DNA from: a virus
DNA length: 64,000 nucleotides
Strand: one strand, 5' to 3'
Virus record (IMG/VR): IMGVR_UViG_3300035698_012504
Location: 58,694-122,693 of that record
Positions 16,239 through 36,331 of the stretch are shown here, piece by piece; the stretch's first letter is position 1; each line of letters starts with the position of its first letter. Both the position numbers and the translations under genes were made by a program. The notes under the pieces were generated by a model. It searched no databases. It saw nothing but the letters and a program-made list of their open reading frames with translations, and was not told the DNA's origin.

Positions 16239-16602
16239 ATTTGAGTTCACAAAGGATGACTATTATATACGACTTCGAGAAAGAAGATTAATTGGATTTG
16301 ATAACTTTATAGATAGAACTGCGGTTATTATGGAAGAAGACGCAGCAAAAATATTTTATCTATTTTCCGATGGTCGCTTTTTCTATTATGAGTTATATAG
16401 CTGGGATGACATATATTGGGAAATTGAATTACCTATAGATGTAGCATTAAAACACAATATAGTATCCAAACAAGAATATGACGCATATGCTGATTATATA
16501 GTACATGAAAAAAAGATCAAACAACTAAGACGAAATTCTGAAGTAATACAAGATATGAAACATAGAGTAAGGGATTTAGTAATTAGAACGGAATCTATAT
16601 AA
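16222..16602 (+). CDS. hypothetical protein
   Basis: ORF. Confidence 0.4.
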   Translation: MILVDKFEFTKDDYYIRLRERRLIGFDNFIDRTAVIMEEDAAKIFYLFSDGRFFYYELYSWDDIYWEIELPIDVALKHNIVSKQEYDAYADYIVHEKKIKQLRRNSEVIQDMKHRVRDLVIRTESI

Positions 16603-17291
16603 TGATTAACATAGACAAATATCCTAGGACGTTGAGGCTACCATTTTCTCCTGGAAATCCAAATAGGAAACTAGTATCATCTGCTCCATTTATTGGAAGA
16701 AAAATAATAATTACAGAAAAGATGGATGGATCTAATACAGGGATAGTGGACTGCGAAGTGTATGCTAGATCTCGCGGTGGAAAAGCAACTCATCCATCAT
16801 TCAACATAGTAAAAAATTGGGCTGGTAAAACATTTGGATGTGAAGGAGATTATAGTAATTTATGGTTTTACTTTGAAAATATGTATGCAATTCATAGTAT
16901 AGAATATACGTCTTTACCTCACTTCTTATTCTTGTTATCTGTAGTAGAAAATAATGTATTTTTAAGCTGGGATGTAATATCCAATTATGCTACAATGTTG
17001 AATGTTCCTACTCCTCCGGTATTATATGAGGGATTCGTAAAAGATGAGAACCAATTAAAGGGACTTATATTAGAACAGATGAAATACCCTTCTATGTTCG
17101 GAGGACCGAAAGAAGGAGTAGTTGTGAGGTCTTATTCAGCATTTCCATTCTCAGAATTTCAATTGAATATTGGAAAGTTCGTCAGAGAAAATCATGTACA
17201 AACTGATATTCATTGGTCAAAAAAATGGAAACCTACAAACATAGCAAAGAAGGAGAAGAAAGTTGTCATTGACACAACAGGAAGCATTTAG
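16602..17291 (+). CDS. RNA ligase-like nucleotidyltransferase
   Basis: Motif I ITEKMDGSN (KxDG), motif IV EGVVVRS, motif V IGKFVRENH. Confidence 0.55.
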   Translation: MINIDKYPRTLRLPFSPGNPNRKLVSSAPFIGRKIIITEKMDGSNTGIVDCEVYARSRGGKATHPSFNIVKNWAGKTFGCEGDYSNLWFYFENMYAIHSIEYTSLPHFLFLLSVVENNVFLSWDVISNYATMLNVPTPPVLYEGFVKDENQLKGLILEQMKYPSMFGGPKEGVVVRSYSAFPFSEFQLNIGKFVRENHVQTDIHWSKKWKPTNIAKKEKKVVIDTTGSI

Positions 17292-17574
17292 GCTTTTTCA
17301 AGATGTAATAGATAATTCAATTAAACGATTTCTAATAACTCTCACAGATATTAATGGAAAAATAGTAGTAATAAATATTTTACATATTGAGAACATAGTA
17401 GACAATGGCATGGATAAAGGTAGACCCACATGTAAGGTATTTTTACCAAAAGGAAAATATTTCACAATTCCTCAAACAGCTGAGAACCTAGTCAAATATT
17501 TTGCACATGGTGCAGAAGCATTTGCTCCTATAGCAGATGAAGATAAGAAAGAAGAAGTCTTAGTTACAACTTAG
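17263..17574 (+). CDS. hypothetical protein
   Basis: ORF. Confidence 0.35.
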   Translation: MSLTQQEAFRLFQDVIDNSIKRFLITLTDINGKIVVINILHIENIVDNGMDKGRPTCKVFLPKGKYFTIPQTAENLVKYFAHGAEAFAPIADEDKKEEVLVTT

Positions 17575-17583
17575 GAAAATATT

Positions 17584-17769
17584 ATGAGAATAGAAAGAAA
17601 TGCTTTTGCTACTATATTTGTTGCAGAAACGCAAGGGGATGTTACACTACTAGAAACCTTCTGGCAGTTTACAAGAGAAGAAGATAAAAGTTATGATAAA
17701 ACTAAAAGAACTCCGCTTTTTAGAGAATCTGCGGATGATATAAATATACTTATAGATCATGGAATGTAA
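17584..17769 (+). CDS. hypothetical small protein
   Basis: ORF. Confidence 0.3.
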   Translation: MRIERNAFATIFVAETQGDVTLLETFWQFTREEDKSYDKTKRTPLFRESADDINILIDHGM

Positions 17770-18166
17770 ATTCAAGGATGAAAATTTAGAGATAGATTTT
17801 AGTATACCAAATCTAGTAGAATTAGCAGCTGTAGTCTTCTGGATAGATGAAGTAGCAGGGCAAAAGTTGTGTATGCAATCACACAATAATCCTTATGCTG
17901 ATTATAGTACGTATGAAGAAGCTAGAGAGATGTTTATGCGAATCGTAAACGAAGCTATTAAAGAACCTACAAGTCCTTGGTATAATTTTAAACATGTGGG
18001 AGATTGTACAAATATGGCGTGTACATGTGAGACCTGTTTAGTACTTGAATATCTTGAAAGGGCAACGCGGAAGTGGGGGCCTATATATCAAAAAGCTTCT
18101 ATAGGTGAAAAATTTGATCCCCGCGCAGAAGGGGTTATACGTAAACCTGATTTGAAATATTTATAA
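17759..18166 (+). CDS. hypothetical protein
   Basis: ORF. Confidence 0.4.
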   Translation: MECKFKDENLEIDFSIPNLVELAAVVFWIDEVAGQKLCMQSHNNPYADYSTYEEAREMFMRIVNEAIKEPTSPWYNFKHVGDCTNMACTCETCLVLEYLERATRKWGPIYQKASIGEKFDPRAEGVIRKPDLKYL

Positions 18167-18191
18167 TTAGGTCATTGAATGACCTCTATGT

Positions 18192-18275
18192 GGAGGAGTA
18201 GCGTAATTGGTAACGCACACGCCTGGAAAGCGTGCGACTTCGGTCTTGCAGGTTCGAGTCCTGCCTCCTCCGCCA
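18192..18275 (+). tRNA. tRNA-Ser (anticodon GGA)
   Basis: Acceptor GGAGGAG/CTCCTCC; anticodon stem CACGC/GCGTG with loop CTGGAAA; long variable arm; T-arm GCAGG-TTCGAGT-CCTGC; GCCA end. Confidence 0.75.
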
Positions 18276-34207: not shown

Positions 34208-34559
34208 AGTAGAGGAAGAAGAACCTACAAAATATATAAACTGTAATAGCATTGAATCTATTGAGAAAAGAGAAAGTCATAATGTTGTTAGAATGGGTAG
34301 CGGACATACTCATAGATTTAAAGAATATGAACTGCTTACTATTGAAGAGGTATCTGAAGATATTAGTGATGATGTTGATGAGCCTGAGGAGACAGGACTA
34401 GATGATGATTGGCAACCAACAATAGGTAGATCCCCAAGACCTACGCGAGATGAGATCAGGATGGGGGGTGAGCGAATCCCAGTGCGTCGGCCAATTATTG
34501 GGCGGATTCCACTACGATTATCCGAGACCTATGGTTACAGTAGATGCAGTAATATTTGA
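34185..34559 (+). CDS. hypothetical acidic protein
   Basis: ORF overlapping its neighbours. Confidence 0.3.
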
Positions 34560-35028
34560 TTCAGTTGATAGACTTAGGGTGTTGATGGTCAAGAGAAAGG
34601 GTGAAACTGAACATGGTAAGTGGGCTCTTCCTGGTGGGTTTGTAGATGAAGGTGAAGACCTACATGAAGCAATTTCGAGAGAAGTACTAGAAGAAACTGG
34701 TGCAGCTATTAAATTTACTTATAAAGATCAATACACTACTGTCGGTACACCATTACGTGATCCAAGAGGGCATGCTATAACAATAGTTCACTGCGTAATG
34801 ATTGACCCTAAAGATTACAATTGGGAAGCAGGAGATGATGCATCAGAACTACGCTGGGTTGATCCAGTAGATCTCGTCGATGGAAACGAAATTCCATTAA
34901 ATGATATTGCGTTCGATCACCTTGAGATTATCAGGCATATAGATAGCCAAATTGAATTGGCAAACCAACATATCAAAAAAGTAATCAAAGATACTGAAGA
35001 CGAGTGTTCCGATTGCTTTGCTATGTAG
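34531..35028 (+). CDS. Nudix hydrolase
   Basis: Nudix box GGFVDEGEDLHEAISREVLEETG; start trimmed to the internal ATG. Confidence 0.7.
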   Translation: MVTVDAVIFDSVDRLRVLMVKRKGETEHGKWALPGGFVDEGEDLHEAISREVLEETGAAIKFTYKDQYTTVGTPLRDPRGHAITIVHCVMIDPKDYNWEAGDDASELRWVDPVDLVDGNEIPLNDIAFDHLEIIRHIDSQIELANQHIKKVIKDTEDECSDCFAM

Positions 35029-35040
35029 AAAGGTATTAAA

Positions 35041-35580
35041 ATGGCTTTATCTAATTGGGATCTTTTATCAATAGACGAAAATCATAAGTCTACCAATGGT
35101 AGTATATCATTAGATGATGGTAAAACAGATGTAGAGATTTATAAAAATTATGTCCATATTAAATCTGGAGAAGCATCCCTTACTATGGGTACTGGACATA
35201 TAACAATGGGTGGTAATGAAATATTTGCAAAGAGTGGTCCTCAAAATTCTGTATTCTGTCTTGTGATGTCTCCACCATGGGCAGAGGACGATGTAACAAT
35301 TAAATTGATGGCTGGCATTGGTTGTTATGGTTATGCAGATGATGGTGAATTTGTAGGAGTTCTTCCAGAAACTTATGAAGAGTTTTTACAGTGGTTAGAA
35401 TCCTTAAAAGAAGATATGTATGGTGAGGATTATGGAAAATGGATAGAAGTTCTTAGAAAGTCAAGTGATACTATCACGAGAGTGAATCAAGGCGACAAGT
35501 TCTTTACTGGTGAAGAATTGGCTACTCCTGTAGGTAGATGTGAAGCTACTACCCTACTTCAGAGAATGTTGACAGATTAA
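35041..35580 (+). CDS. hypothetical protein
   Basis: ORF. Confidence 0.4.
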   Translation: MALSNWDLLSIDENHKSTNGSISLDDGKTDVEIYKNYVHIKSGEASLTMGTGHITMGGNEIFAKSGPQNSVFCLVMSPPWAEDDVTIKLMAGIGCYGYADDGEFVGVLPETYEEFLQWLESLKEDMYGEDYGKWIEVLRKSSDTITRVNQGDKFFTGEELATPVGRCEATTLLQRMLTD

Positions 35581-36005
35581 TGGTGAATTTATCTAAGAGA
35601 GACATTGAGTGGGAGTTAATGTCTAAAGTACACATGCTAAGTATAATTAAAAAACAACGTTTGAATTTTTATTTGAAGATACTCCACTTAAGAGGAAAAT
35701 TACTGGAGGCTAGAGATAGGTCTCCTGTATTATATGATGGTACAGCCACATCAATGCAGAATTTTGCCAGAGAAGGATTTAATTATACTTCTATCTTAAA
35801 AATAATAGAGGGAAGAGTAAATTGTGCATATCATGATATAAATATATTAGTTGATATGGAATATGAAGAAATGAGCCCAACATATAATCCCCGATTTTTA
35901 GATTGTGAATACGAGCTTCAGTTTGATCCTCGTGATGAAGACAAAGCCAAGAAAGTATTAGCTTGGTGGTACACAACATTTATAGAAATGAGTGATGATT
36001 ATTAA
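35580..36005 (+). CDS. hypothetical protein
   Basis: ORF. Confidence 0.4.
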   Translation: MVNLSKRDIEWELMSKVHMLSIIKKQRLNFYLKILHLRGKLLEARDRSPVLYDGTATSMQNFAREGFNYTSILKIIEGRVNCAYHDINILVDMEYEEMSPTYNPRFLDCEYELQFDPRDEDKAKKVLAWWYTTFIEMSDDY

Positions 36006-36025
36006 ACAAAAGGAAAGAGAGATTT

Positions 36026-36331
36026 ATGGAAAGTTATAACCCGATTTTAGATAATGTTTTATTGGAAATATTACCACCTGAAGAGAAGGTTGGAAATATT
36101 ATTATGCCTATGATGAATGAGAATATATTACCGCGTCAGTTTGCAACAGTACTTGCAGTAGGTCCTGGTAAAAGGATGGCTGATGGTGATAGAATTCCAA
36201 TGCAAGTAAAGGTTGGAGATATTATAGTAATTGGTGAACAAGATCATTGTGTACCAGTAATGAATGCAGAGAAGAGAAGATTATTTATATATAAAGAACA
36301 TTCAATAGCATGCGTTGTGGATGAATTATAG
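36026..36331 (+). CDS. GroES-like co-chaperonin (Hsp10 / gp31-like)
   Basis: ILDNVLLEILPPEEK...ATVLAVGPG...VKVGDIIVIGE GroES pattern. Confidence 0.55.
   Translation: MESYNPILDNVLLEILPPEEKVGNIIMPMMNENILPRQFATVLAVGPGKRMADGDRIPMQVKVGDIIVIGEQDHCVPVMNAEKRRLFIYKEHSIACVVDEL

Follow-up and report, generated by a model that had tools for sequence, protein, structure and literature searches.

A dispersed set of predicted RNA-repair and translation-rescue genes in the tRNA island of an uncultivated jumbo-type phage

Introduction

Phage T4 repairs PrrC-cleaved tRNA-Lys by means of its enzymes Pnkp and Rnl1. A broader toolkit described in jumbo phages comprises tRNAs, RNA ligases, kinases, phosphoesterases of the 2H, cREC, HAD and calcineurin-like types, RlaP, the CCA-adding enzyme, Thg1, TROVE and peptidyl-tRNA hydrolase (PMC7824862), and is predicted to undo the damage that host endoRNases inflict on tRNAs and to dispose of ADP-ribose (ADPr) by-products (PMC7824862, PMC9503650). 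In the bacterial PrfH-RtcB system, the gene of a GGQ hydrolase lies beside that of an enzyme for 2',3'-cyclic-phosphate RNA ends, the logic being release followed by repair (PMC9304027, PMC6514570), and RF-1-domain genes are on record from tRNA arrays of mycobacteria and mycobacteriophages (PMC5966550). Here we analyze a 64,000-nt stretch of DNA from an uncultivated jumbo-type phage (positions 58,694-122,693 of IMGVR_UViG_3300035698_012504, hereafter the window), in which two RNA ligases, a cyclic-phosphate-processing receiver-like (cREC) domain, a GGQ mini release factor (mini-RF), a Nudix hydrolase and two metallophosphoesterases (MPE1 and MPE2) are encoded among phage tRNA genes (Table 1).

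The locus resembles the jumbo-phage RNA-repair and ribosome-rescue systems in its tRNAs, ATP-dependent RNA ligases, cREC, calcineurin-like phosphoesterases and Nudix protein, and differs from them in several respects. The hydrolase is an RF-1/GGQ mini-RF encoded directly after cREC, whereas the published ones are PTH2 or Pth1; the window shows no sign of a kinase, sirtuin/KptA, 2H or HAD phosphatase; the genes are dispersed, whereas the published neighborhoods are compact; and the cREC domain contains a duplicated DHDLG motif. As in T4, broken tRNA anticodon loops would be healed and sealed by phage-encoded enzymes, but the window has no Pnkp-like kinase-phosphatase, an Rnl5-type ligase and an unclassified minimal nucleotidyltransferase (NTase) take the place of Rnl1, and healing would depend on cREC and the metallophosphoesterases. 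Compared with PrfH-RtcB, the phage protein lacks the PrfH decoding-like domain, and its neighbor is cREC, with no RtcB among the window ORFs scanned. Similarly to the mycobacteriophage arrays, an RF-1-domain gene and HNH homing endonucleases occur within a tRNA array; in contrast to high-GC actinophage-like contigs, only domain 3 is kept, and the lineage is that of a low-GC jumbo phage. The toolkit concept was already published in 2021 and 2022, and the locus is a new example of it, not a new principle. New relative to the three reports on jumbo-phage systems and mycobacteriophage arrays (PMC7824862, PMC9503650, PMC5966550), where we did not find them, are the GGQ mini-RF as the hydrolase directly after cREC and the duplicated DHDLG.

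We propose, with a probability of roughly 0.55, that these enzymes form a dispersed guild among the phage tRNAs that keeps translation going when host-defense or competitor nucleases cut tRNAs. The steps of this scheme, which follows the one proposed for jumbo phages (PMC7824862 and PMC9503650), we infer from domain identities and gene neighborhoods. The phage tRNAs would replace cleaved host tRNAs, while cREC would open 2',3'-cyclic phosphate RNA ends, or the by-product 1'',2''-cyclic ADP-ribose phosphate, and the calcineurin-like phosphoesterases would strip the resulting linear phosphate. The Rnl5-type and minimal ligases would then seal breaks with 3'-OH and 5'-phosphate ends in folded tRNA, and the ADP-ribose-type Nudix hydrolase would turn ADP-ribose-derived by-products into AMP. 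The mini-RF may hydrolyze peptidyl-tRNA on ribosomes jammed by broken tRNA, with no stop codon required. Should the scheme prove correct, the guild would be one of the means by which large phages withstand tRNA-cleaving defense systems, of which more and more are known.

The cREC domain and its genomic neighborhoods

All residues invariant in the cREC family (the E-D pair, DHDLG, NTG and IHSxN) are present in the window protein. Like the latter, all 33 of the 33 homologs inspected are stand-alone proteins of about 120 aa, and no histidine kinase was found by Pfam in the window open reading frames (ORFs) scanned, so that cREC does not stand in a two-component setting. A 15-nt tandem direct repeat at 33613-33642 produces an in-frame 5-aa duplication of the invariant DHDLG; it is unique among 16 aligned members and is present on all 10 metagenome contigs encoding an identical cREC protein. 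The family is predicted to act as a cyclic-phosphate phosphoesterase and is linked in phages to RNA ligases, kinases, calcineurin-like phosphoesterases and Nudix (PMC7824862, PMC9503650), and cREC genes with tRNA ligase, kinase and calcineurin-like neighbors have been published (PMC9503650).

Since co-location in a single window proves little, other genomes were examined. The cREC set comprises 91 loci (8 contigs from a protein search, 20 viral contigs and 63 metagenome contigs), which form 65 non-redundant groups; the counts for cREC and for the major vault protein (MVP) discussed below are descriptive, with no formal statistical test. An MPE1 homolog lies near cREC in 10 of the 65 groups, almost always immediately downstream and often followed by Nudix. 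Homologs of the window Nudix hydrolase, identified by iterated search, are likewise found at or near cREC in 10/65 groups, direct tblastn identities being 31-38%, and a contiguous cREC-MPE1-Nudix triad is observed in 6/65. MPE2 homologs occur 0.8-1.7 kb downstream of cREC in four groups. A PF09414 ligase is located between the adjacent position and about 4 kb from cREC in 7/65 groups; Rnl5-type enzymes account for 5/65, and homologs of the minimal ligase (ligase 1) are found near cREC in loci L154 and L209. At least three tRNA genes are present in the cREC locus of 15/65 groups. Counted by locus, 19 of the 91 cREC loci (787 kb) have a homolog of MPE1, 5 of MPE2, 12 of Nudix, 7 of the Rnl5-type ligase and 6 of the minimal ligase; the corresponding numbers for 89 MVP loci (1.5 Mb), used as a control, are 1, 0, 3, 0 and 0. 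In a first small cREC sample, a Fisher test of ligase presence against other phage loci was not significant (p = 0.077).

Several of these loci are instructive. In L137 the genes form the row cREC, Rnl5-type ligase, DNMK-like kinase and Metallophos, and L136 contains a ligase, a Band_7 (SPFH) protein, cREC, an AAA_33 kinase and the CCA-adding enzyme. In L138, which holds the closest cREC homolog with a visible upstream context (57% identity), a TROVE (Ro60-like) protein (42.9 bits) and three tRNA genes precede cREC (positions 66-2914).

The window could, on the other hand, represent a hypervariable accessory-gene island, an insertion hot spot collecting unrelated 'moron' genes, in which case the co-location would be functionally meaningless. 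At least four homing-endonuclease-type genes (HNH, two GIY-YIG and a LAGLIDADG intein in RecA) are interspersed with the tRNAs, and the MVP gene, with a GC content at third codon positions (GC3) of 0.57, shows that foreign cassettes land in the island. The components are 1-26 kb apart, no related locus shares long-range synteny with the window, and no near-identical phage is present in the reference collection (a megablast search against 50,697 phage records gave one tRNA-Val fragment match only). However, on many unrelated phage contigs members of these subfamilies directly adjoin cREC, the stop codon of one gene often overlapping the start codon of the next, and they are rare in the control loci. 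This recurrence combined with rarity in the controls argues for functional linkage and is hard to explain otherwise, which makes a chance assemblage of accessory genes an unlikely explanation. Since the same subfamilies recur beside cREC elsewhere, the ligases, phosphoesterases, Nudix and cREC are best described as a recurrent functional guild that is dispersed in this phage.

Other neighbors of cREC belong to NAD metabolism and to counter-defense. ART-PolyVal and NMNAT genes are found in L135 and an NMNAT-Nudix-NAPRTase arrangement in L050, and genes annotated as anti-defense (Gad2, Acb5 and Tad2-like) lie within a few kb of cREC in L136, L137 and L139, which suggests that cREC resides in counter-defense islands. 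These neighbors would also be expected of a small-molecule counter-defense, in which cREC, phosphoesterase and Nudix degrade cyclic ADP-ribose-type signals or NADase products, and the ligases, tRNAs and mini-RF are separate. Consistent with it, the window Nudix belongs to the ADP-ribose pyrophosphatase type and retains its catalytic box, the tight cREC-MPE1-Nudix triad occurs in six loci without any ligase, and cyclic ADP-ribose (cADPr) processing has been proposed as an alternative substrate choice for cREC, with cREC-Nudix fusions reported (PMC7824862, PMC9503650). This explanation does not account for the cREC genes beside RNA ligases and within tRNA islands, nor for the window cREC immediately preceding a ribosome-acting GGQ protein; moreover, no NAD-salvage, ART, sirtuin or Macro genes were found in the window ORFs scanned. 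As a replacement for RNA repair we regard it as improbable; the two roles are compatible, as Appr>p is itself an RNA-repair by-product.

RNA ligases

An earlier interpretation of the window, made from the letters alone (hereafter the sequence-only reading), had pointed to two distinct RNA-ligase-like nucleotidyltransferases, the second of them with a tRNA-binding-like OB domain at the N-terminus. Profile searches agree, PF09414 being found in both proteins and PF21189 at the N-terminus of the second. Both classify as RNA ligases rather than as DNA ligases or capping enzymes, either of which that reading had named as counting against it. Placement within Rnl1/2/3/5, which it had left to profile searches, succeeded for ligase 2, whereas ligase 1 could not be assigned to any one of them.

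Ligase 2 has an N-terminal OB domain followed by the NTase domain and lacks a C-terminal OB domain, which is the architecture of Rnl5, and retains the motifs KLEGVN, EGIVIKP and VKKRSPEY. It aligns with Naegleria NgrRnl (5cot/6vt4) over residues 8-256 (E = 2e-20) and scores 152.9 bits against the equivalog TIGR02306 RNA_lig_DRB0094, barely over the cutoff of 151.15. By these comparisons it is an Rnl5-type enzyme, predicted to seal 3'-OH/5'-phosphate nicks in duplex RNA. The short ORF just 5' of its gene has a long Gly/Ala-rich tail (GGGGGAGGAVGGGGAGAVGGGVG) and coincides with a local GC bump of 44%.

Ligase 1 contains the motifs KMDGSN, EGVVVRS and KFVRENH. Among 36 family members K40, D42, G43, E171, G172 and K192, together with other residues, are invariant, so that the motif I lysine (KxDG) and motifs IV and V are in place. 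The family comprises more than 377 homolog clusters of about 215 aa, in which the nucleotidyltransferase domain stands alone. Its profile has a sole match in PDB, the adenylyltransferase domain of the Candida tRNA ligase Trl1 (E = 8e-5), and ligase 1 has no match in NCBIfam. In Foldseek comparisons its AlphaFold (AF2) model, with a predicted local distance difference test score (pLDDT) of 88, matches the NTase domains of Rnl3, Rnl5, Rnl2, Trl1 and Rnl1 about equally (TM-score ~0.5), while DNA ligases and capping enzymes rank lower than RNA ligases. Because the domains of five families match about equally, we describe ligase 1 as RNA-ligase-type without assigning it to a named family; neither sequence, profile nor fold favors a single one among Rnl1/2/3/5. 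On one bacterial contig, a ligase-1 homolog is followed, with an overlap, by a gene for an HD + AAA_33 kinase, the classic partner for healing.

Phosphoesterases and Nudix hydrolase

Both metallophosphoesterases invoked in the sequence-only reading are real, belonging to PF00149 and PF12850, but their genes lie outside the 16602-36331 segment to which it had assigned them. MPE1 is a candidate end-healing enzyme removing 2'/3'-phosphates. The Nudix hydrolase, recognized by that reading at the same place, has an intact Nudix box GX5EX7REUXEEXGU (GFVDEGEDLHEAISREVLEETGA read in translation). Its best matches are NrtR and NadM-Nudix in NCBIfam and 2fml, 3gz5/3gz8 and 2qjo in PDB, from which an ADP-ribose pyrophosphatase substrate type is predicted. 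This type points to NAD/ADPr by-products rather than to RNA decapping.

The GGQ mini release factor

The mini-RF gene starts with GTG 2 nt past the cREC stop codon. Residues 10-72 of its product are ~50% identical to RF1, and the whole protein corresponds to phrog_3122 (E = 8e-33), its residues 5-117 aligning with positions 20-128 of the 136-position profile; the 1108 homologs are mostly 105-130 aa long. The AF2 model (pLDDT 90) consists of the GGQ domain, a long helix (58-100) and a C-terminal beta-hairpin, without a codon-recognition domain, and Foldseek ranks domain 3 of RF1, RF2 and mtRF1 above PrfH, mtRF-R and ArfB.

Two assignments were considered and rejected. Against the prfH model the protein scores 81 bits, compared with a cutoff of 166.65, and covers only positions 102-186 of 200; it has 119 aa rather than ~200 and no RtcB neighbor. 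The ArfB/ICT1 model NF006718 matches only residues 8-42, at 37.5 bits (cutoff 100), and the C-terminus of the protein is a helix plus hairpin with no basic tail (net charge of residues 72-119 about +1). ArfB, ICT1 and mtRF-R (C12orf65) are also stand-alone GGQ domains without stop-codon recognition; in ArfB/ICT1 a basic C-terminal tail probes the empty mRNA channel, whereas the mini-RF has no such tail and its GGQ domain is nearer to domain 3 of RF1/RF2 in both sequence and fold.

In agreement with the sequence-only reading, the window thus encodes a minimal GGQ release-factor-like protein with a stand-alone receiver domain immediately upstream of it, and the HMM classification suggested there identified the latter as cREC. 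Its further comparison of the receiver with the REC-like domains next to RtcB/PrfH operons is not supported: the architecture of the GGQ protein is not PrfH-like, no RtcB was found in the window ORFs scanned, and cREC was defined in jumbo phages (2021), with no RtcB/PrfH association in the literature found.

An RF-1/GGQ gene accompanies cREC in 2/65 groups. In L050 it follows cREC at +171 nt, in the same order as in the window and with 54% and 52% identity to the respective window proteins, the flanking genes being unrelated to those of the window except for an HNH endonuclease; in L146 the two genes are 3.2 kb apart. The GGQ homolog of L050 (5643-5996) is an ORF without an ATG start, which the automatic gene caller split or mis-called. 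Because both this copy and that of the window use non-ATG starts, the mini-RF family may be under-annotated. The specific link between cREC and the mini-RF rests on few cases and is suggestive. The two could constitute a dedicated 'release-then-heal' unit, a phage analog of PrfH-RtcB, in which the GGQ protein would free ribosomes jammed by cut tRNA, cREC would open the 2',3'-cyclic end, and the phosphoesterases and ligases would rebuild the tRNA; we consider such a dedicated pair doubtful. The coupling is not mentioned in the literature found.

About half of 34 viral RF-1 loci sit in tRNA islands; for the phage loci the count is about 15 of 32. Their partners include Thg1 (L003, L031), RlaP (L027, L031, L033), an Rnl5-type ligase (L003), a ligase-1 homolog (L016) and MPE homologs, those of MPE2 being found in L019 and L031. 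On the high-GC actinophage-like viral contigs L027, L031 and L033, the proteins are PrfH-like, ~200 aa long, with a PCRF remnant.

Gaps in the proposed repair pathway

Several observations weigh against the proposed tRNA-repair guild. No sizeable window ORF contains the Walker A motif GxxxxGK[ST] of a P-loop kinase or has a kinase Pfam match; therefore 5'-OH breaks could not be sealed by the visible genes, only 5'-phosphate breaks. Similarly, KptA, sirtuin, 2H, RtcB, Thg1, RlaP and the CCA-adding enzyme gave no Pfam match in the ~80 window ORFs scanned. The repair-type genes do not form an operon, being scattered across 27 kb amid homing endonucleases. The cREC family is experimentally uncharacterized, its activity being a prediction (PMC9503650), and the duplicated DHDLG may impair the window copy. 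A GGQ domain with neither a decoding domain nor a basic tail has no obvious route to the ribosome, and the cREC-GGQ linkage is seen at only two of the other cREC groups. Lastly, an ADP-ribose-type Nudix fits, as far as its sequence tells, a NAD/ADPr small-molecule role as well as an RNA-end role, and so do the ART, NMNAT/NAPRTase, Gad2, Acb5 and Tad2-like neighbors of cREC.

The sequence-only reading had drawn an analogy with T4 Pnkp/Rnl1 and envisaged an expanded counter-defense or translation-rescue module. A heal-and-seal logic is shared, but the analogy is incomplete, as no kinase, KptA/sirtuin or RtcB was found in the window, and it is weakened further by a mini-RF that is neither PrfH nor ArfB and by the duplicated DHDLG of cREC. 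The module is partly supported, by the RNA ligases, the cREC family, the recurrent phosphoesterase, Nudix and ligase neighbors and the many viral RF-1 genes in tRNA islands, although as a guild rather than an operon. The surveyed loci supply testable partner sets, namely the cREC-MPE1-Nudix triads, the cREC-ligase-kinase-MPE rows and the cREC-miniRF pairs.

The major vault protein gene

The largest gene of the region, overlooked in the sequence-only reading, lies directly upstream of cREC and encodes an MVP homolog. It has the shoulder (SPFH-like) and vault-repeat domains also found in phage and bacterial MVPs, to which it is 37-45% identical. MVPs of phages are known from an earlier report (bioRxiv 10.1101/2023.11.10.566534); in contrast to these and to the bacterial ones, the window MVP gene lies within a tRNA island and stands out there as an insertion of foreign composition. 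No other strong compositional island occurs in the 64 kb: the MVP ORF has 52% GC and a GC3 of 0.57, compared with 0.13-0.28 in 16 other genes.

This arrangement raises the idea of an MVP-centered ribonucleoprotein system, in which MVP, cREC and mini-RF would constitute a phage 'vault-like' RNA-repair particle. Apart from the adjacency itself, it could be related to the TROVE gene that precedes cREC in L138 and the Band_7/SPFH gene near cREC in L136. TROVE also occurs in a vault component. In L138 the TROVE protein, an RNA-quality-control protein, occupies the position that MVP has in the window. However, the MVP gene is not only foreign in composition but also closed off from cREC by a terminator-like hairpin, the strongest in the region. 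MVP is absent from all 65 cREC groups, and cREC from all 9 phage and 80 bacterial MVP loci; any RF-1 match occurs in 1/89 of the latter set, among which no conserved neighbor genes of MVP were observed. Rfam found tRNAs only, with no vault RNA, Y-RNA-like element or other noncoding RNA near MVP or cREC. A vault-like repair particle is therefore largely refuted by context and seems very improbable. The most plausible origin of MVP is recent horizontal transfer into a low-GC jumbo phage, and because of its GC3, the hairpin and the absence of co-occurrence in both directions (0/65 and 0/89) we exclude it from the guild. Such an eye-catching neighbor warns against inferring function from adjacency.

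In 5/80 bacterial MVP loci, a ~195-aa ORF with two H-x-T motifs (HFTVFG, HVTLYT) is located directly 3' of MVP (e.g., L083, 12602-13189). It resembles a 2H phosphoesterase, for which Pfam gives no support.

The tRNA island and other genes of the window

The window has a GC content of ~34% and a steadily positive GC skew, and its long ORFs are all on the plus strand except one. The phage encodes a split multisubunit RNA polymerase, a beta' subunit fragment of which was identified by Pfam. Several metagenomes hold contigs with proteins identical to those of the window, and contigs carrying these proteins reach 80 kb. The 64 kb contain 12-13 tRNA genes in total, 11 of which were called by ARAGORN, and Rfam adds 36446-36516 and 36652-36708. 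The 12 tRNA or tRNA-like genes that the sequence-only reading had counted between 16602 and 36331 correspond to the whole window; the interval itself holds seven, with another two or three at 36446-36708. All genes for which it gave coordinates are real and correctly typed, its errors being this count, the position of the phosphoesterases and the omission of MVP.

Table 1. Features of the 64,000-nt window (positions from the first nucleotide of the window)
Feature	Position	Strand	Remarks
RecA-like gene with LAGLIDADG homing-endonuclease domain	1139-3424		Intein-like insertion
MPE1, calcineurin-like metallophosphoesterase	7552-8268	+	PF00149, 56 bits; GDVHG and GNHE motifs
tRNA island (span)	8830-41291	+	ARAGORN; Rfam at gathering and E-value thresholds
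tRNA-Gly	8830-8903		
HNH homing endonuclease	8973-9740		
MPE2, second metallophosphoesterase, Metallophos_2/YfcE-like	10477-10986	+	PF12850, 34 bits
ClpP protease	12742-13284		
Ligase 1, minimal RNA ligase, NTase domain only	16602-17291	+	229 aa; PF09414, 70 bits (cutoff 27)
tRNA-Ser	18192-18275		
tRNA-Ser	19861-19954		
tRNA-Leu	19966-20042		
Long minus-strand ORF	19999-20733	-	244 aa; no Pfam match
tRNA-Val	23502-23578		
GIY-YIG/T5orf172 homing endonuclease	23772-25463		
'tRNA-Tyr(ATA)'	25485-25563		Odd call, anticodon ATA
tRNA-Ala	25565-25640		
Short ORF with Gly/Ala-rich tail	27318-27629		
Ligase 2, Rnl5 (DraRnl/NgrRnl)-type RNA ligase	27769-28857	+	362 aa; PF21189 OB domain (residues 6-95), PF09414 (158-350)
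tRNA-Asp	29183-29257		
MVP homolog	30648-33392	+	914 aa; PF11978 MVP_shoulder, 97.3 bits; PF17795 Vault_3, 40.1 bits
Terminator-like hairpin between MVP and cREC	33413-33441	+	13-bp stem, T-rich tail; strongest such site in 27000-37000
Stand-alone cREC domain	33462-33845	+	PF20274 cREC_REC, 55.4 bits (cutoff 27)
Mini-RF, RF domain 3 (GGQ) only	33848-34207	+	119 aa; PF00472 RF-1 domain, 78.6 bits
Acidic ORF overlapping mini-RF and Nudix	34185-34559	+	124 aa; no Pfam match; called as gene in all metagenome copies
Nudix hydrolase, ADP-ribose pyrophosphatase (NrtR/NadM-Nudix) type	34531-35028	+	PF00293, 72 bits
GroES co-chaperonin	36026-36331		
tRNA	36446-36516		Rfam-only call
tRNA-Phe	36572-36647		
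tRNA-like element	36652-36708		57 nt; Rfam, 45.9 bits
NAD-dependent DNA ligase	36740-38725	+	Pfam domains
tRNA-Tyr	39752-39840		ARAGORN-only call; overlaps ORFs
tRNA-His	41213-41291		
Hsp20 small heat-shock protein	41407-41796		
GIY-YIG+NUMOD3 homing endonuclease	47011-47715		
Protein with EF-hand motifs	47892-49544		550 aa
RNA polymerase beta' subunit fragment	57502-58437		Pfam

The sole long minus-strand ORF overlaps tRNA-Leu with its 3' end, and the local GC skew falls to ~0. The overlap and the drop in skew suggest that the gene is genuine and encoded on the reverse strand; it may be a homing endonuclease that inserted next to the tRNA. The phage also has its own proteostasis set, which consists of ClpP, GroES and Hsp20, and the 550-aa protein encoded near the right-hand GIY-YIG gene contains canonical EF-hand calcium-binding motifs, which are uncommon in phages.

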